Source: Candidatus Omnitrophota bacterium | GTDB taxonomy: Bacteria; Omnitrophota; Gorgyraeia; Gygaellales; Profunditerraquicolaceae | Direction of reading: 5' to 3' | Length of the DNA stretch: 40,515 nucleotides | Assembly: GCA_026387385.1 (NCBI GenBank) | Contig: JAPLLU010000087.1 | Location: 1-40,515 of the forward strand | Shown here: positions 24,001 to 40,515 of the stretch, one piece after another | Position numbering within the stretch: the first letter of the stretch is position 1 | Layout of the letters: each line of letters begins with the position of its first letter | Made by a program: the position numbers and the translations under genes | The notes under the pieces: model-generated | The model's database searches: none | The model's input: only the letters and a program-made list of their open reading frames with translations | What the model was told of the DNA's origin: nothing

Positions 24001-27000
24001 TCAACCCCAGAACCTCAACCTCGACCCTATGCTCTGCCAGTGCCAGAAGAATTCAAGGCAAAAGCAGAAGGAATATTTGGTAAAGATTGGATATCGCAGG
24101 TATTTTCCATAGAGGATTTTGAAACATTAAAGGTAACTCAAGAGATTAAGGAAAGATTCGCTAACCTAGGTATAGACCAGGAAAAATTAAAAGAAATCCT
24201 TCAAGGAATTATAAGCCGTGCGCCTCCTGGGTCTAAATTTGTATTTACCACTAATGAAGAATATTTAAAAGATACTAAAGGAAGAATCCGCGTCATTGCT
24301 TTCAATGCGGCTGAGAACATCTTCTATATCCATCCTTGGTATTTAGAATTATCCGCTAATCCTGCCCTAAAACCCCTGATTGATGACCTCTGGCGCCACG
24401 AATACAGCGAATTTGGAAATAAAGGCCTTTCTCAAGAAGCTGCCCACGCCGCAGCCTGCCAGGCAAGTTATGATTATTTCAAAACCCACCAGAAGGAATT
24501 AGAGCAATTCTTAAAAGCAGTCAAGCAATTTAGCATAGAACTGGATGAAAATTATCTGAGTGTATTGCAAGGCATCCTTGTTTCTTCTAAAGTGATCAGC
24601 GGCAAGAGACAAACCACCACCTCAGCAATTAAGACTGATAATAACTCATCTCTGCTTAACGATGGCGGTATTCCTGTAAAGAGCGAATGTGATAATTTAG
24701 TAGCAAAAATACAGGAGGCATTCTCCGGTATACCGGGGAAATTAGCTAAGGATTTGTTAGAATCTAACCTTGAATTCTGGAAGGAAGTATTCAATAAGCA
24801 CGGCAAGGTTATCTATATCGGAAAATCTAATATCAAACAATTAGAAAAAGATTATCCTAAAACATGGATGACTATCCTGAAGATTTTAAGAGAAAAAATG
24901 CGGGTTACATTTAAAGGCGTCTCTATGCTTGAGCTGCAAAAGATGGCCACTGACTGGCCAAAAATATTACTGTTTATCTTCAAAGACGAAAAAGAATTCG
25001 AGGATATTGAGGCAAAACTGGCTTATGATAGTAAGGGTATTCCATTGGAAAAAGTTAAATTAGAATCAGATATATTAAAAATCCAACAATTTCTCTTAGA
25101 AAATAATTTGGAGGGATTAAAGAGTGTTGTCTCTACTCATAATTATCCCGTAGTTTTAGAAGTGGCTAAGACAATTAAGGCACTCTCTAAACCAGAAATC
25201 CGTAAAATAGCTATGAGATATTATTTTTACAACTGGATAGATGTTCTCAAGACCTTAATGCAGATAAGAGAGATTCAGGAACTAATTGCAAATGGTCAGT
25301 TAGAGCAAATAAAAGTTAAATTCCCGCAGATTGCCTCTGAGGTTATAGAATTAAAGGGGAAAATTAAATCTTTATCTGATACCGACATCTGGGAATTAAT
25401 AACAGAGCATTATTATAGTGCCTGGTTTAAAGTTTTAAAAGATAGAAATCCGCACAAGACAACCTTAGTTGGCGGGAAAGAAAATACCCGGAAAGACCGC
25501 AACACAACTATGCTAACCGATGGCGGCACAAGCAAAAACTCTTTTATGGCAGATACCAAACTCATCCTGGCTGAACTTGATAAATTAATGAAGGATGAGG
25601 TAAATACATTAGTTAAAACTTCCGAAGGATATGATATTAAGATATTTGGCATAAGGGGAGTAGGTGCAATGCTGGTTCCTTCTGAGTTTGGCATTGAATT
25701 CCGGAAAGATAAGGCAGTTCTCTTTATGTCTAAAGAAGTCATTGATTTATTTACATCAATAATACGAAAGAATAGAAAGTTCTTTATGAGTCTCTCCCGG
25801 GAAACTAGATTAGGAATCCAGGGGGCAGATGAATTTAAAGGACCTATTTCACCGCTAGTTCATAAAAAACGAGCTATTTTAACACTTATTCGCGAAAGGA
25901 TGGATATTGTTTCAGAGAAGTTACCCGCATATTATCCTATATTCGCCGCTTTAGCCGAAAGGGATCTGCCTATAGTTGAAATTAAAAAGATGCAAGAGTT
26001 AGCCGGTATGAGTTCGACACGGAAGCTTATTTCTTTATATCAACCAGCTAAGTTTACATTTGATTTGCAGGCAGAAGATGTCCCGATGCTTGAGATAGCA
26101 AAGAGGCTGCTTGTGAAATTTGAAGGCGAGGGCGACATAGTATATTCGCTGCAGGCTCACGGATTATGGTTATTAGAAAAATTATATAAAGGCGTAAGGT
26201 ATGAACAGAAACAAAAGGAAACGCATAATTCTATTGAATCCTTTATTGGTGAATATATCCAAAATAACACAAATATCAAAGATGTAGTAGAGGCATTTAA
26301 AGCGCAAGCCGCGTTTAAGAGCCAATCAGCATTCAACGCCCATGTCATTAGTACTCAAAGCATAAATAATAGGGAGTTCATAGACGAATTAATGGAAAGA
26401 TACCCTGAAGAAGCAAAAAGCCTGCAGTGTGCGCTTTATGCGCTCGGATATTCAACACTATGCGATTTGCTTTTAGGGGCTACTTATGAAAGGAATCAGA
26501 AAGAAAGGCATAGGTCTATAGAAGAGTTTATTGTCGAATATGTTCAGCAAATAACAGACATTAAGGACGTAAAGTATGCATTCAAGAAACAATCAGCATA
26601 CGGTGCTTTATCCAAATTTATTACTCACTTTATTAACCTAGAGAAAGTTGATAAGAGAACATTAACAGATGCGTTAATGAAGGAATACCCGAATTTAAGG
26701 AGTTTGCAGTTGGCCCTCAGGTATCTCGGATATACAAGTTTATACAAACTTATTGTTGGCGCGGTATTCGAAGAGAAACAGAAAGATAAAGGAAGATCTA
26801 TCGAGCAGTTCATTAAAAATAAAGAAGGTAAGGATAAGAAGGCTTTAGTAAGAGAGTTAGTTAATGCTTATCCTCAAACATGGAACTTTGAATATGCATT
26901 GCGCTATTTAGGACGATATGACCTAATACACTTTCTCCGAATCTATAAAATTGATAATCATGCCGGAGAATTTATTAATCAAGCACTCGATGGCGGGAGG

Positions 27001-30000
27001 ATACAGAATATTTGGCGTAAGTTCGATGAAGGCTCAGAAGCCATTATTTATGTTGGAACGCCGGGTAAGGTTGAAGCGTACGAAAAGGCCATCAGCTTGC
27101 CTGAGTCTTTGCGAGTGGCAAAACGCGTGCATTGGGGTAAGACTAAAGCAGGATACGCATCATTCTTAAAACACCTCATTTTACGCGTATTGGACGATTA
27201 TTTTGTGCAGAAAGGAACGTATAGTGTAAATCATATTCCTCAGCCGTTGGGGTTCTTTGATACTGGTTATTACTACATTTTTGTTGAAGGAGTAGAAGCG
27301 TTTTCATTGGATAGGATAGATAATGGCTTTAGGAAGTACCCGATTAGGATAAAAGAAGAAAATATTTTTACATACAACTTCGCAGGGTTTGGTTTTAAGT
27401 TATACGTCGATGAGGTTAATACTGAAGATAATATTGCACAAAATATTATTCATGAGGATTGTAAAGATGAAGATTTACTTTCCGAGCACTGGAAAAAGAT
27501 AGATTTTGGTTCTCAGAGTACCGTGTTTAACATAGGCCAGTTCTTAAAAACCCTTGAGGATTACCGCGATTCTCTGCAGGAAATTTTAGGATGGAAATAC
27601 GATTTGGTTAAATTAGCAGGCCAATATCTTAAGGTTCAACATGCAATTAGTGAATCTGTGGTCGATTCTGATAGACAGGAGTTGCATAATTTAGTAAGCA
27701 GATATTTAGATGAAACAGCCGATAAATTAAGAGCAAAGCAGGACGGCGGCAATATAATCCTGCCTCCAAGCACCACTATCCCCAGCCTCAGCGGTTACAA
27801 TAAAGCCAACTTTAAAGGTAAAATCATCTTTATAAGAGTAGATTTCAATGTCTCAGATGAGACCGGCAAGATTAAATCCGTAAAGAGAATACTTGAGGCT
27901 ATGCCTACCCTGGTTTATTTGATGGAGGCAGGTGCTACCATAGTCCTGGCCTCACACAATGGCAGGCCTTCTGGTAAGGTCGTCCCTGAACTCTCCATGG
28001 GCCCGGTAGCGATTAAACTAGCTGAACTCTTAAAGGAAAAAGGATATCAAATAGAGGTAAACTTCTTAAGCCAAAGCATCACCGAGAGCGGTTTAGCCGA
28101 AGGCCTAAAGGAAAAGATCAAGCCAGGAGCGATCAATGTCTTAGAGAACACCCGCTTCTTTAAAGGGGAAGAGAAGAACGACGCAACATTTGCCAGGCAG
28201 CTTGCAGAACTGGTAGATAACCAGATCTTCCTCTTTGATGCCTTTGGTACAGCTGAGCGGGTGCATAGCTCTACCGGTGGAGTAGCTAATTACACTAAAG
28301 AGATCCTCCTGGGCTTCCTGATGGAAAAGGAGTTCAGATATTTACAGGGCGCATTGGATAGCCTCTATGGCCTGATTATAGGCGGCGGCCCCAAGGTCAG
28401 CGAGAAGGTGCCTGTAGTCAAGAACGTCATCAAAAACATTGCCAAAGGCGGCTTCATTGTTATCGGCACCGGCCCAGCTCCGGCCTTCTTAAAGAATCTC
28501 TACAACATAGATCTTGCCCAGAAACCCAGCGATGCTGACTTAAAAGATGCCCAGGAGATAATCACTCTGGCCAAAGAAAAAGAAGTAAGGGTCATCTTAC
28601 CAGAAGATTTTGTCTTAATCGATAAGAGCCTCCTGGATAAGGCGGATGGAGAAAAGAACTATATCGACCTCAAGAAACTCCCCGCAGGCGCAAAAATATA
28701 TCGCTTAACCCTGGAACAACTGAAAACCGGCAAGTTCATTGATGATACTGCTACAGAAGTCTTAGTCAGCAGCCTCTACATCTATGATATAGGTAAGCAA
28801 AGCGAGGTCTCCTTAAAAGAAATCATCCTCAATACCCCAGCAACTCACGCCGTCTTCTACAACGGAAATGTGGGAGTAGAGGAGCTCTTGGAATTTAGCC
28901 CTGGCTCAAAGGCTATTGCCCAGGCCTTGGCAGAGGCCACCGCAAAAGGAATAATCACAGTCATAGGTGGAGGAGACACCACCAAGTCCGCAGAGAAGAA
29001 CAAGGTTGATACCAAGGTCACCCACTGTTCTACCGGCGGCGGCGCCTCAGCTGCCTTCTTAAAAGGCGAACAGCTGGCAGTGGTAAAAGAATTAGAGCGG
29101 ATCATCAGCGAGAGAAAATCCGCTCCCGCCAAACTCTTATGCGACGGCGGCAATATAATTCTACCTCTAAGCACCACTACCCTCATACTCAGCGCTTACA
29201 ATAAAGACAACGAAGGTAAAGAGACTTTGAGTAATATAGAAAAATGCTCCTTACTCAAGAATAAGTTTTTTGACGGTGATGATGCTAAAATTCTCGCTGC
29301 CTTCATTCAGTGGTTGAAGGAATATAGAGCAAAATTAAACCAGCGGCTTTCCTACGAGGTATTATTGGATAAAGAATACCTCATGGTAACTGATGAAAAA
29401 GGCAATTATTCAGGCGCAATCAGGCCAAGAGAACTTTGCCACATAGACGGAACCTGGCATAGGTCAGTGTTTGTTTTCGTTATAGATAAAGAGGGCAAGA
29501 TATTACGGCAACAGCGTTCTTTCAAAAAGGAATTATATCCCGGAGCCTATGACATTTCTGTAGGAGCGCACATCTGTTGTTTTGATGCGGATTCACGCTC
29601 AGCAGCAGCAAGAGAGTTGCTGGAAGAACTTTTCTCGGGAGAATGTTGGATTGATAAATCACGTTTAGTCCAGATAACGCAAGATGGCGAAATAGTACAT
29701 CAAATGGTCTATGCTTCGGATAGGCAGAATAATGAGCGCGCCACAGTATTCGTTTTTCATATCCAAGAAGAAGAAAAAAATAAAATTAAGTATCAGGAAG
29801 AAGAAGTTTTGGCTTCCGGGTGCAAGTGGGTTGATCTTGAAAGTGAAAGGATTGAATTTGAGAAACATCCTGAGCTGTATGCAGGCGCTTTCCAGAGAAT
29901 GTTTACAGAAAATGGTAGTAGCGATTTGCATTTAAGGGTAATGTCCCGCTTAAATAAAATAATTGATTTGATAAAACAGGGCGGGGTTGAGCAGATAGGA

Positions 30001-33000
30001 GAATTGGATATAGACAAAGATAGAGTGAATATTGGAAAAGTTGAGGGAAAACTTGATGGCGGTAAGGAGGAATTTAAGCAGCTGGCAGATATTATTGCTG
30101 AGAGGTTAACGGCCGACATTAAAATTGATAATGACAACTACATACGGCTAGAAGAATTAGTGGGCGGAGAGCTGACAGCGGAATCAATTGATTTTTCTCC
30201 TGCTAAGGAATGGCTTATCTACCCAACATATGATGATAAAGTAATCATATATGAAACTGTAGGTAAGAGAGTTTTAACGGAACAGGAGCTGGATCAGGTA
30301 ATTAAGATGTTAACAGGCATGAACCTAAAGACAACCATTGTTCTCGTAGAAAAGGACAAGAAAACAATAGTTATAGATTTAGATTTTGCCACAATCGAAC
30401 GTTATGCTAAAGCCTTAAATCTCTTAGCCGCACAGCTTGATGAACGCTTGGTAGAAGCCATTGACAACATACACGATATTCCTTATCGGGATGGCAGTAT
30501 CATCAAAATGAAATTAATGAAACTGCCATTTAGGAATTTTAAATTTCCTGATGAGCTAATTAATTTCTTGGTTAGATTTTTTAAAGTAAGGACAGCTACA
30601 TCGCCGTTATCCAAAAAATCCCTTGATTGGCTGATAGATCAATACATGCAAAAAGAAAATTATGGCCTAGATGTGCAGTCAGTATTAAAAGAGGGCAAGA
30701 AAGAATGTCAGAAGAAGTTAGCTGCTATAGAGGAATCAAAAGCAATAGCTGCTGATCCGCATTTAATGCCGGAACAAAAGGTCGGACAATTAGGTGTGGG
30801 TATTATCTATAGTGAAGAAGAAACAAACAAAGAGCTGGATATTATAGATTATCTTTTCGAGATGTTCCTCCCAGAGAAAACATTGCTTACGTTAAAGGCC
30901 TTAAGTAAATTGCAAGAAGAAAGAAATATCGTTGAATCGGTCAGAGGAGATCAATATTACTTAGATTTTAATTGCGGTATCAAAGCCATTAACGAGATAT
31001 GCGAGCATAAACCACTATTGAGTGAAGTGGAGATAGTAGATGGAAAAGGCACAAGATTAGATATTGAGGAACCCGATGAGAAAGTATTAGAAAAATTACT
31101 CGAGCAACATAAAAAAGAGATAATGTATGACTTATTAGAACAAAGTTATCCTGTTAAATTCTTAATTTCTCTTAAGAATTTCAATACAGGTGAGAAATTC
31201 TATGGTGCATATTATGAAGGGCATATTGATGAGGAAGGCAATATCTGGATTGAAGAAGTTAATTTCTTGATGTTAGGAAGAGGTCTGTTTAAAGCCATAA
31301 GTGCACTCATCTCTAAATACCTTAAACAGCTCCCACATAATATTAAGGTTAAGCTGTACATTTGGGAATTGAATTCTCTCATTGAGCTGGCAGAGAGCTG
31401 TATTAATTTTACAGATACCTGTGAGGAAAAAATTAAAGAAAGGTTGTCAAATCAAGAATGCAAGGAAGCGCTGTATAATTTACGTAGCAATATACCTTTA
31501 TGTAAAGAAATCAGAGACAGTCAGCTTGCATTCGGCTTTGGCTCAGAGCGCAGAGAGTGCATTTTAACCATGTTAGATAACCTGTATGAACTTCTGTTGG
31601 CTTGCGAGAAATCGCCATGTGACCCTGATAAAACATTATGGGGGCATATCTACATAGACTATATGAATTTATTCAATGTAGAAATAAAAGCAGTTAAGGA
31701 TGAACATGGGCAGAAGTCATTGCTATTAGTTGGTGATACAAATCCGGGCAGGTCTCTTGAGGGATTAGAATCCATAGGGCCAGAACATATAAATCCGAAG
31801 CCAGAAGAAGCGTTTGACGGAGGCAAGAAAGAGAAGGCCAAGCAAGTAAATAAATCCCAGAAAAACGATGGCGGAAATATTAAGCCTGCTAATATTGAGG
31901 TCGATGATTTAATAGATGAACTGAAAAACAAAGGAAAAATTAAGATTCGCGCCAATGACGGAGTAGAGTTTGAGTTTAGATTAAGAATCTTATGGGATGG
32001 TATGTACACTATAGAAGTTTACAAGGGAAGGGATAATATAGGTCGCGTTGACTTTGAGCTGGGAGGCATAGGTTATAGTAGTTTTGAACGCGCTCTCTCG
32101 GATAATGAACCTATAAAAGTTACAGAGAAAAATTATAAAGGTATAGGCAGGGCTTTAGTTTCGTTAGCACTTGGCCTATCAAGAGAAGAAGGTTTAAAAT
32201 GCTTTATTGCGTGGATGTCAGTAGCAGATTCATTTTGGTTAGGTTTAGGTTTTGAAAGAATAGGTGATTCATCTAATTTTAAATTCGACCTGATAAACAA
32301 AATCATACCTCCTATAGAGATAGTCGCAGAGAATACCATCTATCCCATTCCTGTCCTCCGTGGCCGGTGGGAAGAGGCAACTGTTTTCTCCCCGCGAGGC
32401 TTAAACTCTAACCAGGTCTTTTCTTTTGTCTCCGATGAGAAAACGCTTACAGACGGTGGAAGGCAATATTCTCAAGAAACGCCTCAGGAGAAATATGCAA
32501 GAATTACACATAATTTGGATAAATTAAAAGATGATGGAATTTTAATATTAAAGTTAAGAAGAACCGTTAAGCCATATAGGCTAGATATCTACTCTGCTGT
32601 ATATCTGCCGATTAATATAGCTATTTATTATAAAAATAAATCTCTCTTGGATGTTGCAAAGATAGTAATAGAAGTAGAATCTGATGGATACAATCGCCCC
32701 GTTTACTTTAGAGAAGTACCTGCCGAGAATATTTCAATACTTAATGTTGCTTTAAGCAGAGAAGTAAAGTTTGATAGTTTAGCATTACAAAATATTTCTT
32801 ATGTTGAGAAAAATAGTAGATTTGATATTGCGTTCAGTAAAGATTTCTTGCAGTCCTTCGAAGCTCTTGGAATACCAAAATATTATGCATTTAAATATGG
32901 CTCTTGCAGATTTGTTGCTCAGCCTGAAGCAGAACAAAAATTATTACTTGATGGTGGTCAAAAAGATAAAACTGCAGTTATTGCTTTAGGCGGTAATGCC

Positions 33001-36000
33001 TTCTTTAAGGAGATAGGTGGAGAGCCATATAATAAACAGTTAGAGAATCTCTCCCAGATGCTTGAGCCTGTAGTAGGGCTCATCAAGAATGATTACCAGG
33101 TAGTGATAACCCATGGTAACGGACCTCAGGTGGGAGATAGAATGCTGGAGAACGAGCGGTTTGTTGAGGAGAAAGGTAATGTTAAACGCCTGCCTCTTGA
33201 TGCACTTGTGGCTGAGACTCAGGGTGCAATGGGGTATATGATAGAGATGGCCTTACAGAGGTTGCTTATAAAGGAAGGCCTTCAGCGAACTACCGCTACT
33301 GTGCTTACTCAAGTAGTCGTGGATAAAAATGACCCAGCCTTTAATAATCCGACAAAGCCAGTTGGCCCCTATTATTCCCAAGGGCAGGCGGAAAAATTAA
33401 TAAAAGAAAGAGCCTGGAAAATGGTAGAAGTCCTGAACCGAGGCTGGAGAAGATTAGTCCCATCGCCAGCTCCAAAAGAAATCGCCAGCCTTAGCGTGAT
33501 TGAGAGGTTATTAAGAGACAATTGCGTTGTTATTGCCTGTGGTGGCGGCGGCATACCGGTTTATAAAACAGAAGGGAAGTCTCAAGAGGGAGTAGAAGCA
33601 GTAATTGATAAGGATCGGGCCTCCAGTTTACTTGCAGTTAAACTCAACGCCGATAAATTTATCATTTTAACTGAGGTAGCCGGCGTTTACTTAAATTTCG
33701 GTAAAGAAAATCAGCAAGCACTTAATGAAATAAGTATCGCCCAAGCAGAAAAATATTTGTCTGAAGGCCATTTCCCAACAGGCAGCATGGGACCTAAAAT
33801 TGAATCTGCCATTGCCTTTGTCAAAGCTACCGGCAATAAAGCTATTATTGCAAACGAGAAGAGTATTCAAGACGGATCATATACTTCAATTGTAGAACAA
33901 TTCAGTCAAACTAGACTCATGGCGGATGGAGGCAATAGCCAGCAGACAAAACTTTCTTCTGTGATTGAAGAACTCAAGTCCAGCTCTAAGTTCGTGCGTC
34001 AAACGGCATTATCCTTTGTTAAAGAATATATTCTTAAAGACAGACCGCAAATCCACCGATATCCCGAAGAGAAATATTATGAATTGATTGAAATGCTCAA
34101 TAGTCTGATTGAAGACGAACGGATCAATACCAACAATATTCTCTTAGCTAATCAAGTGAGTGAGTTCTATGATTGGTTGATAGATATATTCGTCCAAAAA
34201 GAAGATTTCATTACGGTCATCGCAGATAACAAGTCAACTTTTGATAAGGAAAAATCCAGATTAATTGAGAGCCATATTTCAGGCTTCAATCTTTCCTTCC
34301 AACAGGGATTAATAAAAGAGGCGTTTAATTCCAAGATGGTTATCATCTCTAATGAAAAAGGAAAATATTCTTCAGAAAGCATAGCTAAATTTGTAAGAAA
34401 AGCTCCTAAGGACATTTTGATAGTTATCCATCAAGGGGCCAGTTTTGACGACAACTATATTCCGTTTATTAAAGGTACGCAGAAAATTATTATCCTGAGC
34501 ACATTTCCGCAAGGGCTTAAGCTGGCAGGAGAGCCTTTAGCTTATTCTATTTCCAGGAAAGATATTAGGGAACTTCTGCTTAAAGTTAAGAACCCTTTCA
34601 ATATAAATATTATTGATCTTTTAGTTGCGTTACACGTTATTGCAGAGTGCGTCACAGAGCCTATTAAGGAGGCAAAAGCCAAATTTATAGTTGAGGAGGA
34701 TGCTTATCAGATAGAATTACGCTCTATGATAAGAGCGGCTATCCAGAATCCCGGGCTTCAACCCTATATCCCTGGCAAGGGACCAAAAGAAATTTGGACT
34801 GAATTAAATGAGCTGTATCCTAGGAAATACAAACCTGAAGATATCGGCAAACTATCCTCTAATGAAAATCCAGAGATTCTTCCCTTAAAGGCAAGAAAGG
34901 CTTTAGTAGGGTTATTGCTGTCTGCGATGCAAGGAAAACCTTTTGATTACCAGAGAGAATTACAAAAAACCAAGGAGATTATCTCCCGGCAGTTAGGTAT
35001 TGAAGACAGACAGATTTTCTTAGGCAACGGCGCATCCGAGGCAGTGGGAAGAATTATCTCTGCCTTAGCTAAGGAAGGAGACACTATAGTTTTCCCTGAG
35101 AAGACATTTACGCTATATCCTTTAGTAGCAATGGCTCAAGGGTTGAATATGATTATGGTCAAAAACAAGATGAATCTTGAAGAGGGATATATTGATACTG
35201 ATTTTGAAGGCCTTTTGAAAGCAGTTAGCAATAATAAACCGCGATTATTAATATTAGTCAATCCCCGCAATCCCCTCGGGTTGGTAATCACTAGAAAAGA
35301 ACTGAATAGCTTTATTTCCCAAGTTAAAGCAGCCTCACCGAGTACTATAATTATCATTGATGAGGCGTATTATGAATTTGCAAAATATCAAGCAGGGCAA
35401 GAAGGCTGGGAATACCCAAAGACCATACGAGACTATATTAGAAAGAATGATAAAAACATTATTGTAATCCGGAGCTTCTCAAAAATATTAGGCCTTGCAG
35501 GTATGCGCGCGGGTTATGCCATAGCGCACGCCGATATTATTAAGAAACTCGAGAGAATAAAACGATCCTACAATGTTAACGCCTGGGCCTTGCCCCTGAT
35601 TAGAGAAGGCATAAGACAAAAGGCCTGGATTAAAGAGCAGTGTAAAAGCAACTATGAGAATAGGCAGTATCTTTTAGAGAACCTTAAAAATCATCCTCAG
35701 CTCGATTACATTAGAAAAAAGAGAACCTCAGGTAATTTCTTATGTCTATGGGTAAAATCCGGCTATGATGTTAAGGAAGTTATGAATAAAATTAAAAAAG
35801 AGGGCCTGATTATCCGTCCTGTTGGGGAGCGGTTTATTCGGGTAAGCCTGGGTGGGACCTGGCAGCAACTGGGCAGATTAGTTGCTTCTGAGTCGGATTT
35901 AATTCTGGTGGTAACCCATGACAAGCCAAAACGCAAAACCCATAAAAATATATCTTTACTTTTGGACAGTCATGATGTGTTCATCAACAAATTTATTATT

Positions 36001-39000
36001 ACTAATTGTTATTATCCAGGAGAAGAAATAGTATTTGGTGTAGAAAAGAAAGATGTCAAACCTACAGAATTCCAGTCATATTGTTTACTTAATAGAAGCG
36101 GAATAGTTCTGGTTGGTGAATACTTAGAATGCTGTATATTCACCGCCTTTAAGACTTGTGTGACACAAAAATTAAAGCATCACTTGAAAGCAAAGGTTAA
36201 TATTATTAGGGATGCCACTACGATGCGCCTGGAGGAGTATAAGGATAAAGACAAAACCGTCCCCGTTGTTAAGCGCTTACCGGTTGCGGCAGAATATCCC
36301 TACCGCACGGAAAATGAATTTAACACCTTCCTGAGAGAATTTCACATAGAGCATCCCGATATCAGAAAAGAACCCATAAGCTTTGAAGTTCTTATTGATG
36401 GCTATCCATTTTTTAGAGAAGGTAAAGGAGAGCCCGAGATCAGGCTGCACTGGATTTCAAGTACCGATAAATTCTTAAGGCAGCGCAGAAATAAAATTGG
36501 TTCAGCGGAAGCGGATAATATTCAATTTGATGGAGGCAGTAGCGCTGGATTATTAACAGAAGACGGCCGATTAAAATCCGATGTCTTAGAATATGTTTAC
36601 AATATCGATAAGCTTATTAACTTCGTCCACGATAAATCCGCTTTTAGTGAAGATCAGTTGCGTATGGAAATACGGAAGTATTGTAAACAGGCAATGAGCG
36701 AGAGATTTGTTAGGGCCTATAGAAAGGGTAAGATTATAGTTATGGTACCTGATCTGTCAGACCTTGACTTCATGGGGCTGGGCGATTACTTGGCATACAG
36801 TGGATTAATGAAAAAAGATGCTGAATATGTCCAGAATCATGAAGAGGAGATTGAAGAAATCCTCAAGTCTGGTACGCGAATATTGACTTTTAGAGCAAGA
36901 GATAAACAGGAAATACAGGCATCGCAATCGTTAAGAGATACAGAGATTATACCCCACAGACAGGCCTATGCAGGGTTATTTGCTGCTACTTTTGGCAAAG
37001 GCCTCGATCGTAACGCAACCTTAAATTTAGGTTATGAAGGATTTGATAAAGAGGCTTTGGGCTTGAAAGATATGCAGATGAAATTATACGATAATGCCAA
37101 CATGAGGTTAAAACAATTTATAAACTATATAGCAAGTAAGGATTTGATTAAGATTGAAGGCATGACTGAAGATGGCCAGCCTATTAGATTATATATATCC
37201 AGATCAGATTCTAAATCAGAAATATTTGCTTATCTCTTCAGGTTACAATTTAAGGTTTCCCAGGATTTCACTAAAGACAAAAAACCAATTATCCTTTTCT
37301 TTGCTCCAGAGTTGACGAACAATGCCTCAAGATACCTTTTCTTAGACCAGGGCGTTGGTTTCTGCTACGGGAAGGATTATTACGGAGAGATTACCGATAG
37401 TATTAAAATTTTAGCTCAACATAGGAACAAAGAAGCAGACATAGGTCAAGTGAGTTCCCATATAGAAGATTACTATAGCTTAGCGATTAACAGAGATTAC
37501 TTTGTTGATGACGATGGTTTGTTCCATCTGGAAGGAAAACAGTGGCCACTTATCGGAGCATTAGATTTTGACTTCCATCCGTATCTGGGAGATAAAGTTC
37601 TGACGCCGCAAGATAAGCTACATTATTCGCTAAATAAGGTTTTGGGTAATTTGGAACACTTCGCATCCAGGTGTGACGATTATACCCAGAAAACAATGAC
37701 TGAACTCAAAAGTATTGTTAAAAAATACTCGACACAAGTAATGAGCGAGGAATTTATTAGGGTAGCAAGAGAGGGTAGATACGTTGTGCTCTACAAAGAT
37801 CAACTTAGTTTTGATCGGGTTAAGGATTATATAAGGCTAGAAAAATTTGTATTAATGAAGGCTCGCGATATACAGAACAATGAAGATAGGGTATTAAAGA
37901 TATTATCTGAGGATAAGATAATTATATTAGATTGTAAGGCTAAGTTTTCGCCTGAAAATTTTGTACCGTTTACACGCCAAAAGGCCTATGCAGGAATCAT
38001 GGTTCCTTCAAACAGGAAATCTCGAGACAAAGAGCATACCATACATTTACCTTCCAATTTTACATTTGAAGATTATCTTAATCATCCTACTAAAAAGATG
38101 CTCTATTCTGAGGCGGACACAAGAATTAAAGAATTCACCAAATACATCCTCACCAAGGACCTTGTTAAGATTGAAGGTAGCCTGGGCGGGATTTTCCCGA
38201 TAAGACTTTATATCTCTAAGGCTGACCCCAGAGCTGAGAGATATGCCTATTTCTTCCGTTCGCAGTTTAGGGCACCGCTTGAAAAATTACCTAAAGGCAT
38301 GATGATGATGCAGCCATTAACGTTAGTTTTTGCACCCGAATACAAGACTAACGAGGCTTCCAAATATATGTTTTTGGAACAGGGACTGGGTTTGTGCTGG
38401 GGCATGGATTATGGCGGTGAGATCAAGAAAGGTTTCTTGACTATGGGTAATTACGAAGCGCGTAAGCTTGATTGGTTAGGTTTACACGCTGGCTTAAGGA
38501 TGGTTACCTTAAGACATAAAGTCACAGGAGAGATTCTAAGGTTAACACAGGTATTCTTTGGCTTATCCGGCTCGGGTAAGACTACCTACTCAACGAGTGA
38601 ATTAGGATTAAATGAGGCATTAAGAAAACAGTATTCTGATTGGGAAATCGTTGTTGACGAAACCGGACTGGTCAATGACGACATGCTCTATTTAGTAACG
38701 AAAGATACAGAATTCAATGGCAAACTATATAAGAAAGGCCAGATTGTCGGAACAGAAACCAATGTTTTTGCTATTATCTCTAAGCTTAAACAGAAACAGC
38801 AGCCTGAGGTTTGGGATGCAACCTTTAATAATTACTTCTGCTATCTGGAGAATGTGGACTACACAATTGGCTCAGATGGTTTATATACTGTCAATGTGAT
38901 GAATGATATTCCTTCCGGTAACATGCGCGTAACAGCGGTAAGAGACGCTATAAACACAAAAGCCCAAAAATCATTACCCTTGGAGACTCCATCATTTGAG

Positions 39001-40515
39001 GAAAAAGCTAGAATTCAATTTATATTTTTATCGCCAATGATTAACAATTACATACAAGACCCATGGATGGATGGATTACCTATTCAAAAGCTTACTCCTG
39101 GACAGGCAGCCCTTGCTTTGATTGCCGGCATATCTGTGAAAACTCCTGCCTCAACCCACATTGTAGAAAACTGGGGTAAGTCAGCTATTTCACGCTTCTT
39201 CAATCCATTTACACATGGAGACCCAGTACTATACGTCTCAGATTTTTACAACTTCCTACAGGAAAACCCTGATAGAGTCAGTGCCTGGATAGTCAACACC
39301 CGCGCAGGGCAAAAAATGAATGAAGATGGTTCTTTCGATTCAGCCCACAGAATTCATATCCCCCAGAGCGTGCGAAACGTCTTACACGCCACATTGGAAG
39401 GTTTAGGTTTAGAAAAATTAAACTATAGGCAACACCCAGTGATGAGAACGCTCATTCCCGAAATCAAAGATAATGATTTAAGCGGGCTTAAAATAGGCGA
39501 ATTCAGCCAAGAAGAGAGATGGCGTTCTCCCGATGATTTCCGAAAAAGAATTATTGTCTACGCCAAGAAGAATTTCCCTGGATTGCCAATAGAGGTACTT
39601 AATGCCTTTGGAAAGGAAGAACAAGAGGAAAAGAATGATGGTGGAAGAGTAGGTTACGGGTCTCAGGCCGCAGGCTACAGGTATCAAGAAGATGTTCGAT
39701 ACGATGGCGGTATCCCAATTGAAAAACTCATTGCCCACAGAATAGAAAGTAAAGAGCAGTTAGAAGACGCCGTCAAAAACGGTATAGAGAGAGTAGAAAT
39801 TGATGTGCAGCTAACCAAGGATAATGAGTTAGTAGCTTTCTGGGGAAAATTAAAAGACGGGTTTGTTTATGATTATACATCGCAAGAATTAGAAAAAATG
39901 TTAGAAAAAAATTTACTCAATTTAGAAAGGGCTTTCAAAGTTGGCAAGGAAGAAAATCTTAAGTTCAATTTGGATATTAAAGATTGGGCCTCTGAAAAAT
40001 ATATTGAATATGAAGAAAAAGTGCTGGATAAAATTAAAGAATTGATAGAAAAATATAATCTTCAAAATCAAGTATCAGCGGATTCATTCAATTGGGGTTA
40101 TCTGGGAAGATTAAAGCAGCTAGCCTCTTACGTAAACACATACTTGGGCACTGAAAAGGAATTCAAGGATTTAGAAGTGATAATTAAAGAAGCAAAGAGG
40201 ATGAATGCTTCTGGTGTATGGATTTATTCTGAAAATTTGTCCCTCGAGCTCACAAAGAGATTACATCGAGAAAATTTAAAAATAATCACTAATTTTGAAG
40301 GCCTAAGGGAGGAATTTAAAGCAGAAGTAGATTTAATAGTCAAAAATTTTGTTAACGAGAGAGAATCCGCTCCCGCCAGGCTCTTACCTGACGGCGGCAA
40401 TATAATCCTACCTCCAAGCACCACTATCCCCAGCCTCAGCGGTTACAATAAAGCCAACTTTAAAGGTAAAATCATCTTTATAAGAGTAGATTTCAATGTC
40501 TCAGATGAGACCGGC
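1..40515 (+). CDS. Giant multidomain membrane-anchored protein, partial at both ends (at least 13,505 aa, frame +1)
   Basis: Frame +1 reads RVTESPLTPAEESEMLAYFA... through ...RVDFNVSDETG with no stop found in line-by-line translation. The ORF track has no frame +1 ORF despite an ATG at 43, as expected if the frame never terminates. About 20 recognisable domains all lie in this frame. Confidence 0.96.
16..243 (+). repeat. Two copies of a 39-aa (117-bp) coding repeat, probably continuing upstream
   Basis: PLTPAEESEMLAYFAAHPELQPGDIFTLSTGRIVRIV (from 16) vs PLTSEEESEMIAYFAAHPELRPGDVFILSTGRIVHVV (from 133). Confidence 0.92.
262..492 (+). repeat. 11 x 21-bp tandem repeat encoding the heptapeptide I-x-L-[QK]-P-[DE]-T
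   Basis: IILQPET IVLQPET IVLQPDT IILKPDT IELKPDT IILQPDT IMLKPET IEIKPDT IIARADT IVAKADT IKANADT. Confidence 0.95.
1201..2148 (+). other. Domain: clan GH-A TIM-barrel glycoside hydrolase (GH2-TIM/GH158-like)
   Basis: IRGVTY, GINTVRTY, HPAILMWEFGNE (acid/base Glu at 1570), KPVYLSETGAD (nucleophile Glu at 1828), WQDEWWK, NEEYWG. Confidence 0.85.
4393..4455 (+). other. Transmembrane helix followed by a basic stop-transfer segment
   Basis: WLLVVGMTVATVGFFAGLILL then GKRAEKKARD. Confidence 0.8.
4720..8690 (+). other. Domain: FKS1/callose synthase-like 1,3-beta-glucan synthase (GT48) with FKS1_dom1-like region and two TM clusters
   Basis: Collinear FKS/CalS-like motifs: AKEFRFSNPSVIWY, TFEDVEDRF, KTYSD, TM cluster (~5480-5900), ERIQRFIGAWYMRMP..LPSLTAIITCFDE, GKTIGQNAGVEYARGDIVLFFDSN..FEEAIRIPAVLAEF, FYGH, SEDLLG, HREYILFGKGRE, TM cluster (~7560-8620), LMPVFGHP..FLNWL. 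Confidence 0.88.
8971..10104 (+). other. Domain: GT4 (GT-B) glycosyltransferase
   Basis: SGGVETY, WHGG, NRIHQYKG, CDIVVLPTYAEGLPLVLLEA (EX7E at 9817-9843), ETGVLV, MGKAGRQ. Confidence 0.93.
10594..11190 (+). other. Domain: protein-kinase-like fold (1)
   Basis: IGEGIEFVVY (Gly loop), VVK, GLWMMDNSVFKNYG (catalytic loop-like), FMDLG (DFG-like). Confidence 0.65.
11260..13250 (+). other. pgi: Domain: glucose-6-phosphate isomerase-like with an extra C-terminal SIS-like domain
   Basis: GIGG (11467), SKSGSTDET, VGGRW, EQNFNES, QPYVELGK (12631), GTGDQH (12961). Confidence 0.82.
13531..15720 (+). other. Domain: alpha-D-phosphohexomutase (phosphoglucomutase/phosphomannomutase-like)
   Basis: FSTAGIR, TSSH (phospho-Ser loop, 13999), DPDSDR (metal loop, 14560), VGFK, EESGG, FRPSGTDPLKSKIY. 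Confidence 0.9.
16066..16940 (+). other. Domain: UPF0489-like (arginase/deacetylase-fold) putative metallohydrolase
   Basis: PVLISENH, LVNFDLHSD, EIYWVVP, ISIDADYY, ITFSFS, GYLP. Confidence 0.65.
17014..18480 (+). other. prs: Domain: ribose-phosphate pyrophosphokinase with a duplicated N-terminal domain
   Basis: RFPDGEWYLRI, YSRQDKKFKEGEGVSA, LNIH, GPDDGA, DKVR, IIDDETSTGGT, VHG. Confidence 0.88.
18529..19614 (+). repeat. 81-bp direct repeat pair (18529-18609 and 19534-19614) starting two TM+HEAT modules
   Basis: NQSNKFYSFFPFTFLSVGSIPVISDII vs NQSTKFYSFLPLAFLSAGSIPVISDII, clearly similar at the DNA level. Confidence 0.88.
18730..19404 (+). repeat. About 7 PBS-lyase-type HEAT repeats (31-33 aa)
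   Basis: Consensus VRxxAAxALGELGDSRAVEPLIERLxD with near-identical DNA units; about 2 more diverged units at ~20090-20300. Confidence 0.93.
20536..21290 (+). other. Domain: class II nucleotidyltransferase (CCA-adding/poly(A) polymerase-like)
   Basis: LVIGGAVRSIFFDENVYDFDI, LEVD, LEDLLQGRI, ILRLLRL, GLEIDPQT. Confidence 0.75.
21343..21840 (+). other. Domain: zincin-like module 1 (HExxE ... H)
   Basis: AHVGRERNSIYI beta-strands, KILVHESVE (21724), EDAHKVALE (His at 21802). Confidence 0.5.
21961..23970 (+). other. Domain: fucose-1-phosphate guanylyltransferase-like sugar-phosphate nucleotidyltransferase
   Basis: LPDP..VRGNG, LHGGGQSSRNP..GK, YGDALITF, WGT, FVEKP, DTFGDLV, WLDTG, TARIFP, RLFS; no GHMP kinase domain follows. 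Confidence 0.72.
24100..24570 (+). other. Domain: zincin-like module 2 (HExxE ... H)
   Basis: RAPP, IAFNAAENIFYIHP, LWRHEYSE (24397), EAAHAAA (His at 24445). Confidence 0.5.
26191..26930 (+). repeat. About three copies of an unrecognised ~95-aa helical repeat (third internally shortened)
   Basis: Units start at 26191, 26476 and 26758: GxxYExxQKExxxSIExFI...L(M/V)xxYP...L/F(Q/E)xALxxLG. Confidence 0.8.
27001..27735 (+). other. Domain: protein-kinase-like fold (2)
   Basis: FDEGSEAIIY, VAKR, HIPQPLG, YYYIFVEG, AQNII, KIDFG. Confidence 0.65.
27742..27867 (+). repeat. 126-bp direct repeat (DGG linker + PGK start), copy A
   Basis: Matches 40390-40515 except for one synonymous change (ctg/cta); a diverged partial copy starts at 29143. 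Confidence 0.95.
27808..29100 (+). other. pgk: Domain: phosphoglycerate kinase
   Basis: RVDFNV, SHNGRP, LENTRF, DAFGTAER.H, GFLMEKE, IIGGGPKVSEK, DIG, YNGNVGVEE, GGGDT, HCSTGGGAS. Confidence 0.95.
29110..29205 (+). repeat. Linker cassette copy B (ERKSAPAKLLCDGGNIILPLSTT...YNK)
   Basis: DNA similar to 40357-40452 (ERESAPARLLPDGGNIILPPSTT...YNK) and, from DGG onward, to 27742. Confidence 0.9.
29371..29910 (+). other. Domain: Nudix hydrolase / type 1 IPP-isomerase-like
   Basis: RELCHIDGTWHRSVFVFV, QQRSFKKELYPGAYDISVGAH, AAARELLEEL, YQEEEV. Confidence 0.88.
31969..32310 (+). other. Domain: GNAT acetyltransferase-like
   Basis: IGRVDF, YKGIGRALV (acetyl-CoA motif A), ADSFWLGLGF. Confidence 0.7.
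32965..33897 (+). other. arcC: Domain: carbamate kinase
   Basis: VIALGGNA, THGNGPQVG, ETQGAMGY, DPAFNNPTKPVGP, GWRRLVPSP, GGGGIPV, EAVIDKD, GSMGPK. Confidence 0.96.
33991..34645 (+). other. Domain: degenerate HisC-like large domain lacking the PLP lysine
   Basis: IHRYP, NILLAN, IVIHQGA (in place of IIDEAY), STFPQGLKLAGEPLAY (in place of RSFSKxxGLAGxRxGY), NPFNIN. Confidence 0.72.
34726..35886 (+). other. hisC: Domain: histidinol-phosphate aminotransferase-like (fold I PLP enzyme)
   Basis: PYIPGK, KLSSNENP, GNGASE, NPRNPLG, DEAYYEF, RSFSKILGLAGMRAGY (Lys at 35482), SGNFL, IRVSLG. Confidence 0.92.
35893..36480 (+). other. Domain: isochorismatase/cysteine-hydrolase-like (divergent)
   Basis: IVLVGEYLECCIFTA and VNIIRDAT resemble the catalytic-Cys segment of this fold. 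Confidence 0.45.
36580..37560 (+). other. Domain: degenerate duplicate of the PEPCK N-terminal lobe
   Basis: Parallels 37640-38450 (QAYAG/KAYAG, KDLIKIEG/KDLVKIEG, PIRLYIS, FAPE, FLDQG/FLEQG) but has DYYGEITDS in place of DYGGEIKKG and no P-loop. Confidence 0.82.
37642..39612 (+). other. pckA: Domain: ATP-dependent phosphoenolpyruvate carboxykinase
   Basis: KSRD, YGGEIKKG, LHAG, FFGLSGSGKTT, VNDD, GTE, LENV, GNMR, FFNPF, VNT. Confidence 0.9.
39724..40350 (+). other. Domain: glycerophosphodiester phosphodiesterase-like
   Basis: LIAHR, VEIDVQLTKDNELV, NLDIK, SFN, VDLIV. Confidence 0.8.
40357..40515 (+). repeat. Linker cassette copy C + start of a second PGK domain, truncated by the window end
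   Basis: ERESAPARLLPDGGNIILPPSTTIPSLSGYNKANFKGKIIFIRVDFNVSDETG; 40390-40515 matches 27742-27867 bar one base. Confidence 0.93.

Follow-up and report, generated by a model that had tools for sequence, protein, structure and literature searches.

A probable single-chain pseudo-heterodimer of a HisC-type aminotransferase in a giant Omnitrophota protein

The window analyzed here, a stretch of 40,515 nucleotides from a Candidatus Omnitrophota genome, encodes at positions 33934-35886 of the forward strand a module of two unequal HisC-like halves. The module, part of a giant Omnitrophota protein, probably forms a pseudo-heterodimer of a HisC-type aminotransferase (class I-beta, fold-type I) out of one chain. 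The residue pattern and the structural model suggest that the front half, a catalytically dead large domain, folds on the back half like the second subunit of a HisC homodimer. The front half would lend Tyr43 (in HRYP) and Pro221-Phe222 (in PFNIN) to the sole pyridoxal 5'-phosphate (PLP) site, predicted to lie around Lys517. The back half keeps every residue that acts in cis, and its own trans-donated residues have probably drifted because the site that they would serve no longer exists. The outcome would be one active site per chain, with no second giant chain needed as a partner. We infer that the module packs like a dimer, binds PLP and carries out transamination.

Residues kept and lost by the two halves

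The front half (33934-34725, forward strand, module residues 1-264) consists of a large PLP-type domain and a long connecting helix and has no N-terminal arm, C-terminal small domain or PLP lysine. Residues 29-239 of the translation of 33934-34791 match positions 38-256 of the 349 positions of the TIGR01141 hisC profile (E 2.2e-11, 43.2 bits; cut-off 276.55). The half alone scores 15.7 bits on Pfam Aminotran_1_2 (PF00155), which is under the gathering cut-off of 19.7. Its assignment is based on the profile match, on alignments and on its blocks in the AlphaFold2 (AF2) model, where the mean predicted local distance difference test score (pLDDT) ranges from 71 to 97.

The dead half has none of the residues expected of a working site, i.e., the PLP Lys, the Asp and Tyr of DEAY, the Asn of NPxNP and the phosphate Arg. 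In alignments of both halves with the HisC of this genome and of relatives, TFPQG (34501-34515, forward strand, as are all features below) replaces TFSKA/TFSK, which changes the Ser to Pro and the catalytic Lys to Gln. The Pro that replaces the Ser before the lost lysine is invariant in 5/5 dead halves, i.e., those of the window and of four other tandem sequences (P0002, P0003, P0004 and L043). HQGA (34429-34440) replaces DEAY, SNEKG (34348-34362) replaces NPNNPTG, and LAGEPLAY replaces LAGLRxGY with a change of the phosphate Arg to Pro. SNENP is also missing. Two motifs are retained. Tyr43 of HRYP (34054-34065) is kept in all five dead halves; in PFNIN (34594-34608), the second trans-donated loop, Pro221 and Asn225 are invariant in all five and Phe222 is present in four. 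The alignments thus bear out the initial annotation, which had described an upstream copy without DEAY, NP-NP and the PLP Lys that still holds HRYP and PFNIN.

The back half (34726-35886, module residues 265-651) runs from the N-terminal arm through the C-terminal domain, as placed by TIGR01141, Pfam and fold matches. It scores 122.6 bits on Aminotran_1_2, over the gathering cut-off of 19.7. A direct alignment of the copies spans only 63 residues (32% identity, E 5e-6). The alignments place NPRNPLG at 35260-35280, DEAYY at 35359-35373 and SFSKILGLAGMRAGY at 35473-35517, the last with an intact PLP lysine (35482-35484) and phosphate-binding Arg; SSNENP, GNGASE, SGNFL and FIRVSLG are also retained. 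The cis catalytic set is present as K517, D476, Y479, N446 and R525. The substrate-phosphate Arg pair (R628, R636) and the N-arm Tyr (Y278) are present as well, matched to the numbering of PMC4703992 by motif position only. The module borders drawn in the initial annotation were corrected. The dead/live border is near 34726, and MIRAAIQNPGLQPYIPGK, which starts there, is the N-terminal arm of the live copy. Therefore, the dead copy is without an N-arm as well as the whole C-terminal small domain.

The positions that are altered in the live half are those of the trans-donated motifs. GKPFDYQ (34933-34953) stands where ordinary HisC has NRYP, so that the Pro and the canonical Tyr position are changed. 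The alignments differ on which residues are equivalent to RYP (GKP or PFD). The initial annotation had read FDYQ in place of RYP in the intact copy, which holds in substance; however, the live copy is not without a Tyr, as Y339 follows 2-3 residues later. An additional change that had not been noted earlier affects the second loop. The live copy's own trans loop is RSYNVN (35563-35580), in which the Pro of PFNV is changed to Ser. The corresponding loops in the back halves of P0002, P0003 and L043 are DSLS, ESIS and DSLS, respectively, versus PFNV in ordinary HisC.

The M. tuberculosis HspAT and ArAT structures indicate what these motifs do. The Tyr of RYP and a Pro-Tyr/Phe of a loop reach into the site from the adjacent protomer, according to the available part of the structural paper (PMC4703992), which agrees with the earlier claim that the RYP Tyr comes from the partner subunit. 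The trans residues of ArAT are given there as Tyr54, Pro245 and Phe246 (Nasir et al., PMC4703992). In the dimer described there, the interface consists of the palm, the thumb and the N-terminal lid, and the C-terminal "fingers" domain is a roof over the site (PMC4703992). In a phmmer alignment of the genome's own HisC with chain 4r2n_A, the ArAT trans residues correspond to the Tyr of NRYP and to the Pro-Phe pair of PFxV; the numbering of the chain runs one ahead of the published one, and this shift was checked on Tyr15. Of these parts, the palm and the thumb helix remain in the dead half, and the fingers domain, which would cover no site but its own, is gone. In E. coli HisC, Tyr55 contacts the PLP phosphate of the partner. 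By the mapping onto ArAT, the two motifs that the dead copy has kept are those donated in trans.

The copies were compared in a consensus table, whose 47 columns show a conservation of at least 85% among 57 ordinary HisC proteins. The three closer dead halves (window, P0002 and P0003) all keep the same 8 of the 47 columns, namely Y62, P63, L70, N89, E93, P252, N254 and N256. They lose SNENP, NPNNPTG, DEAY, the Ser-Lys pair, Arg232 and all C-terminal Arg. Eight of the 47 columns (Y62, P63, L70, S91, N162, T165, T221 and P252) depart from the consensus in each of the three live halves. Four columns (Y62, P63, L70 and P252) are common to the kept-in-dead and changed-in-live sets, compared to 1.4 expected (hypergeometric P 0.020, for sets picked post hoc). 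Among all five live halves, the trans-loop Pro is lost in four and the aromatic residue in three (P0002, P0003 and L043), in which the loop has diverged further than in the window. Such a reciprocal loss, as read from the alignments, is what a split of labor between the two halves predicts: residues that would act on the vanished site can drift, and those that act on the remaining site are constrained.

The former PLP pocket of the dead half has its own conserved residues. N73, Q74, S76, E77, D104, E106, S139, N140, P192 and K196 are invariant in the dead halves of the four closer lineages. They form the motifs NQxSE, DxE, SN and FPxGLK at module residues 73-77, 104-106, 139-140 and 192-196 (about nucleotides 34150-34521). 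From its sequence, the vestigial pocket looks remodeled and not merely eroded.

Predicted structure

The AF2 model of the 651-residue module, built with an alignment of 65 rows, has a mean pLDDT of 92.2 and a predicted template modeling score (pTM) of 0.92. The pLDDT of the five models ranges from 87.8 to 92.2. Since this pTM covers domains of 264 and 387 residues, the relative placement of both halves is predicted with confidence. The live half has a HisC fold, with a VIA-align Z of 40.1 and a root-mean-square deviation of 2.0 over 342 residues to 3get_B, and a Foldseek match to 8bj1_A (TMt 0.89).

Matches of the models to known chains bear on the arrangement of the two halves. In both the window model and a model of P0004, the same 7 of the 50 PDB chains listed have an alignment that begins at, or next to, the stretch of the dead half that is equivalent to RYP. 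The start residues are 35-46 in the window model, where HRYP is at 41-44, and 55-69 in the P0004 model, where HKYN is at 63-66. In both models, the alignment of chain 4m2j_A begins 15-16 residues ahead of the PFN loop (residues 206 and 229); the window model has three more chains that begin 7-16 residues ahead of this loop. The chain alignments are known by their range ends only, and all 50 of the listed PDB chains are single-domain HisC matches, among which a two-lobed chain such as the P-protein could not show. The starts give a weak hint that the RYP and PFN stretches of the dead half lie against the live domain, at the place where other aminotransferases have their N-terminal segments.

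Relatives, phylogeny and selection

The front half was run by HMMER against 1.84 billion representative proteins, which gave 151 matches at E ≤0.001. Three of these have the same front-plus-back tandem: P0002 (744 aa, E 4.6e-46, 39% identity), P0003 (2,199 aa, E 1.3e-35, 33% identity) and P0004 (667 aa, E 5.1e-14, 25% identity). All other matches have an E of 4e-9 or weaker. Those that were aligned (57 in the consensus table and 61 in the module alignment) are ordinary HisC, and most of the unaligned ones are of ordinary HisC size (about 330-400 aa), with a few of 500-584 aa. L043 was found in a scan of species-representative genomes, where it was the only one of 80 loci to span both halves (43% identity).

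The four other tandem sequences comprise two stop-free pieces of giant frames, one sequence on a 7.8-kb contig and one complete protein of 667 aa. The stretch around L043 is free of stops over 4,625 codons. P0003 takes up the whole of a 6.6-kb contig and has the label "partial" at NCBI. P0004 (JGI) is the complete protein; its contig has a length of up to 132,840 nt. The modules that neighbor the tandem differ between the window and L043; therefore, the tandem moves as one unit. In the window, L043, P0002 and P0003, the identity is 31-48% for the front halves and 48-58% for the back halves, with invariant residues at 45 of the 264 positions in front and at 123 of the 387 in the back. The front halves share 17-22% identity with P0004, the most distant member.

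Three further searches for the tandem were negative. A metagenome scan with the module profile listed 80 loci, which were filled by ordinary HisC, and none of them spans both halves. A word-index homologue search with the dead half, at near and longer sizes, gave nothing at E ≤1e-5, the sensitivity of the index being limited. A locus search of genome contigs with P0004 as the query gave nothing. Another genome of the phylum has a HisC match in a 706-aa frame (G292:C42:5656-6711), which is about double the usual size; the match covers the second half of the profile only.

In the phylogenetic tree, four front halves form one clade (Shimodaira-Hasegawa-like approximate likelihood ratio test support 96) and three back halves form another (100). 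Both clades are on long stems, far from the genome's own HisC. The terminal branches are 0.68-0.88 for the front halves and 0.44-0.56 for the back halves, with a median of 0.75 over the 67 rows of the tree (57 of them ordinary HisC).

Strain variants were taken from contigs of four metagenome runs placed on the module at a likeness of at least 80%. The variants listed are the 40 best-supported of 316 differences, and the contigs are perhaps from more than one relative. Among these 40, the dead half has 19 synonymous and 9 non-synonymous differences (neutral synonymous share 0.215, P 1.9e-7), and the live half has 5 synonymous and 7 non-synonymous ones. The excess of third-position changes in the dead half is plain. 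All three listed variants from the codon before HRYP through its Pro (residues 40, 42 and 44) are synonymous. At the level of sequence variation, these counts show that the dead half is under purifying selection.

Points against the proposal and alternative explanations

Several observations weigh against a built-in catalytic dimer. The genome has a housekeeping hisC at C40:1164-2228, which scores 368.2 bits on TIGR01141, and hisD and hisB are also located elsewhere; therefore, the module copy is not needed for the histidine pathway. The live half, scored over 34792-35886, matches nearly the whole TIGR01141 model with 206.8 bits (E 4e-61), which is under the equivalog cut-off of 276.55. By sequence its pocket is HisC-like, yet the half remains below the cut-off that defines hisC. 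Tyr339 may be a working equivalent of the RYP Tyr in the live half, which is unexpected if it serves nothing.

The adjoining carbamate-kinase-like module does not have a partner copy in cis. Members of the carbamate-kinase family form homodimers. Judged by this neighbor, the giant context alone does not force the solution of a built-in partner. Duplication as such is common in the giant frame. The module after the HisC module contains a second tandem duplication of about 300 aa (36550-37440 versus 37597-38472, 27-39% identity) ahead of its PEPCK-like core. It is also possible that AF2 pairs two HisC-like halves as a dimer by their likeness to known structures alone.

The distribution and the phylogeny of the tandem count on the same side. 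A search of 40 relatives with the dead half and another of 400 sampled genomes of the phylum with the module profile did not recover the tandem; outside the genome of the window, both gave only ordinary HisC frames. The best tree joins the front and back copies as one clade, with a branch support of 0, so a single tandem duplication is compatible with the tree without being supported by it. The core of the suggestion in the initial annotation, a pseudo-dimer with divided functions, is supported by the reciprocal motif pattern, which is conserved in the relatives. The second half of P0004 is without the lysine (SFSF), the Asn of NPxNP (NPGIQTG) and DEAY (DESL), and no lysine is present in either half. 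As judged from the sequence of P0004, the tandem architecture can persist without catalysis. P0004, a complete stand-alone tandem, is possibly a fully non-catalytic descendant. The earlier idea of selection for real catalytic activity does not extend to every member of the group.

The example of P0004 raises the question of whether the whole module could be a non-catalytic pseudoenzyme, a conserved two-lobed binding or structural unit that descends from HisC. P0004 has lost its catalytic residues, yet it is conserved and is modeled with a pLDDT of 87.2 and a pTM of 0.88. The separate housekeeping histidine genes agree with such a role, and the giant frame of the window carries many enzyme-like domains without demonstrated activity (West-Roberts 2023). 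However, the second halves of the window, P0002, P0003 and L043 keep every cis catalytic and PLP-binding residue, and nearly a third of their live positions (the 123 of 387 given above) are invariant across these four. A pseudoenzyme is therefore unlikely for the window.

Alternatively, two chains, or two modules after their release, could still associate through their live halves as an ordinary homodimer, and the dead half would then be an accessory domain on another face, such as a scaffold, a regulator or a docking site. Tyr339 is invariant in 5/5 second halves, the live half of the window still has an aromatic residue in its own loop (RSYNVN), and the residues that are invariant where the dead half had its PLP pocket could accommodate a new ligand. 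However, the trans-loop Pro has been lost in most live halves, the aromatic residue in more than half, and no canonical RYP is left. What the dead half has kept are precisely the trans residues, for which there would be no use on another face, and the pTM of the module model indicates a fixed contact between the halves. This arrangement is about as unlikely as the pseudoenzyme.

It is very improbable that the upstream copy is a roleless, decaying remnant of a recent duplication, because, even though it has lost all catalytic residues and two sub-domains and another tandem duplication lies just downstream, the front half is conserved in five lineages at the identities given above (with 45/264 positions invariant in the four closer ones), its listed variants are mainly synonymous and its AF2 pLDDT is high.

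Genomic context and module borders

No stop interrupts the single frame of 13,505 codons that makes up the window and that is open at both ends in the open reading frame (ORF) listing. It spans the entire contig C45 of the genome (G000; 1.57 Mb, 149 contigs, rated 98% complete). Six further contigs of this genome are mostly or wholly one open frame (2,198 to 7,572 codons); therefore, the window is part of one or more giant genes that are split over contigs. On the opposite strand of the module there are only two short ORFs, of 82 aa (34167-34415) and 73 aa (35136-35357). DNA matches to the stretch are in freshwater and sediment metagenome contigs, and no RNA data sets were listed as carrying it. 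The closest named relatives of the housekeeping HisC are mostly metagenome-assembled genomes of Candidatus Omnitrophota/Omnitrophica (60-79% identity), and the others are uncultured Planctomycetales.

Pfam matches along the frame include a GH2-like barrel, a glucan-synthase-like part, GT4/GT1 glycosyltransferases, PRPP-synthetase domains, HEAT repeats, a fucose-pyrophosphorylase-like part, phosphoglycerate kinase, NUDIX, a carbamate-kinase-type domain, PEPCK and GDPD. Giant proteins of Omnitrophota called "Archaeovorins" are described by West-Roberts et al. (bioRxiv 10.1101/2023.11.21.568195). The frame fits the Archaeovorin type, for which a giant frame with HEAT, glycosyltransferase, NUDIX and glycolytic-type domains, transmembrane segments and a C39 or S8 peptidase are characteristic. 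As far as the available text goes, the likeness covers the HEAT repeats, glycosyltransferases, NUDIX and sugar-phosphate enzyme domains of the window frame and a C39 peptidase domain that a different giant frame of the genome carries close to its start. The difference is that neither a pseudo-dimer nor a cleavage motif is described in that text. All 20 strongly hydrophobic 19-residue segments of the window (Kyte-Doolittle mean of at least 1.8) are located before residue 7729, in the region of residues 1466-7728. Residues 7729-13505, with enzyme modules delimited by the tripeptide DGG, are one long run without strongly hydrophobic segments.

The last 126 bases of the window (40390-40515) are a 99% copy of 27742-27867 and also match 29143-29268 at 60%. 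The repeated sequence is the start of a phosphoglycerate-kinase module (DGG NIILPPSTT...). The repeated module start probably broke the assembly, so that the contig ends at 40,515.

DGG, mostly after hydrophobic residues, occurs at the borders of the soluble enzyme modules. By the tripeptide count, one DGG (33925-33933) forms the upstream border of the module and another (36529-36537) the downstream border. Between the HisC-like part and the second of these is a module tail of 214 aa (35887-36528) with no family match. Pfam gave nothing over threshold for this tail, and the top score in the Atlas was 0.87, while an isochorismatase-like lead reached 0.81. P0002, P0003 and L043 have unlike sequence after the HisC part, and P0004 ends there.

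The window has 15 DGG, all within residues 8221-13464 (nucleotides 24661-40398), compared to a mean of 3.4 and a maximum of 10 in shuffles; there is no DGG in its first 8,220 codons. The rate in the last 5,285 codons is 2.84 per 1000 aa versus 0.157 per 1000 in the other ORFs of the genome. Two other giant-frame contigs also have more DGG than expected (G000:C7, 10 versus 1.2; G000:C116, 6 versus 1.0). L043 has no DGG. A Peptidase_C39 (double-glycine protease) domain is located near the start of a giant frame at G000:C75:14095-14490. In the available text of the West-Roberts et al. preprint, the cleavage points of the giant proteins are stated as unknown. Judged from the sequence, the DGG borders are candidate self-processing sites.

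A more speculative proposal, which is doubtful but deserves mention, is that the giant frame is a self-processing polyprotein. Its own C39 peptidase would cut the hydrophobic-DGG borders and free units such as 33934-36528. The fusion of a dead and a live copy would let an obligate dimer leave a one-copy precursor ready-made and stoichiometric. The pocket of the dead half (NQxSE, SNE, INEG, FPxG) would perhaps have turned into a site for a new ligand or for regulation.

Whether the enzyme domains of giant proteins work can be tested sharply on an enzyme that must dimerize and yet lies within a chain of tens of thousands of residues. A conserved and selected built-in dead partner would argue that the aminotransferase domain is used as an enzyme and is not ballast. 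The 651-aa module is a small construct that makes enzyme function in a giant protein testable, and the DGG borders supply candidate cleavage points for giant proteins.

Comparison with known systems

No description of a tandem or single-chain HisC was found in the literature searched. The word "aminotransferase" occurs 0 times in the text of West-Roberts 2023, although the supplements, which were outside the search, may list domains. A 2026 Omnitrophota preprint, in its available text, has the word once, in the context of phosphoserine-aminotransferase/phosphatase, and lists hisC among complete histidine genes as ordinary biosynthesis.

The nearest relatives by lineage are the homodimeric HisC, HspAT and ArAT enzymes of subfamily I-beta (PDB 3get, 8bj1 and 4r2n). 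The fold, the cis residues and the two trans-donated elements are common to these enzymes and the module. The homodimers are symmetric with two sites, whereas the module would split the roles between two unequal halves of one chain.

The closest parallel in the division of roles is SerTA (Ser4/Ser5) of Serratia sp. ATCC 39006, in which a full aminotransferase, Ser5, is combined with a shortened, lysine-less Ser4 that is mostly a large domain (PMC11726168). According to the available text, each heterodimer has a single site, which is located at the interface; activity requires residues of the inactive chain, and the enzyme is active only as a heterocomplex (PMC11726168). The sequence pattern of the module has the same dead/live split of a fold-type I aminotransferase. 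SerTA differs in that it has two genes and two chains, forms a heterotetramer, belongs to a sugar-aminotransferase lineage and acts on a carrier-protein-bound substrate (PMC11726168, available part). The module, which is known from its sequence only, is one chain in the order dead-then-live, of the HisC lineage and inside a giant protein.

Serine palmitoyltransferase is another example, and in coccolithovirus its LCB1 and LCB2 subunits are fused in a single gene, as reported in the available part of PMC5371807. It resembles the module in that a live subunit and its dead paralogue make up a fold-type I PLP enzyme, and in viruses the two are fused. LCB1 is without the PLP lysine. The differences are that serine palmitoyltransferase belongs to the alpha-oxoamine synthase family, is eukaryotic or viral and is membrane-bound.

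The P-protein of glycine decarboxylase is an alpha/beta heteromer in some bacteria and one fused chain in others. The fused form resembles the module in having two homologous fold-type I halves in one chain, with PLP on one only, and differs in being part of the glycine cleavage system and of a distant, ancient family. Compared to these systems, the module is likely to extend the known dead-partner design of SerTA and serine palmitoyltransferase to the HisC lineage in a single-chain form.

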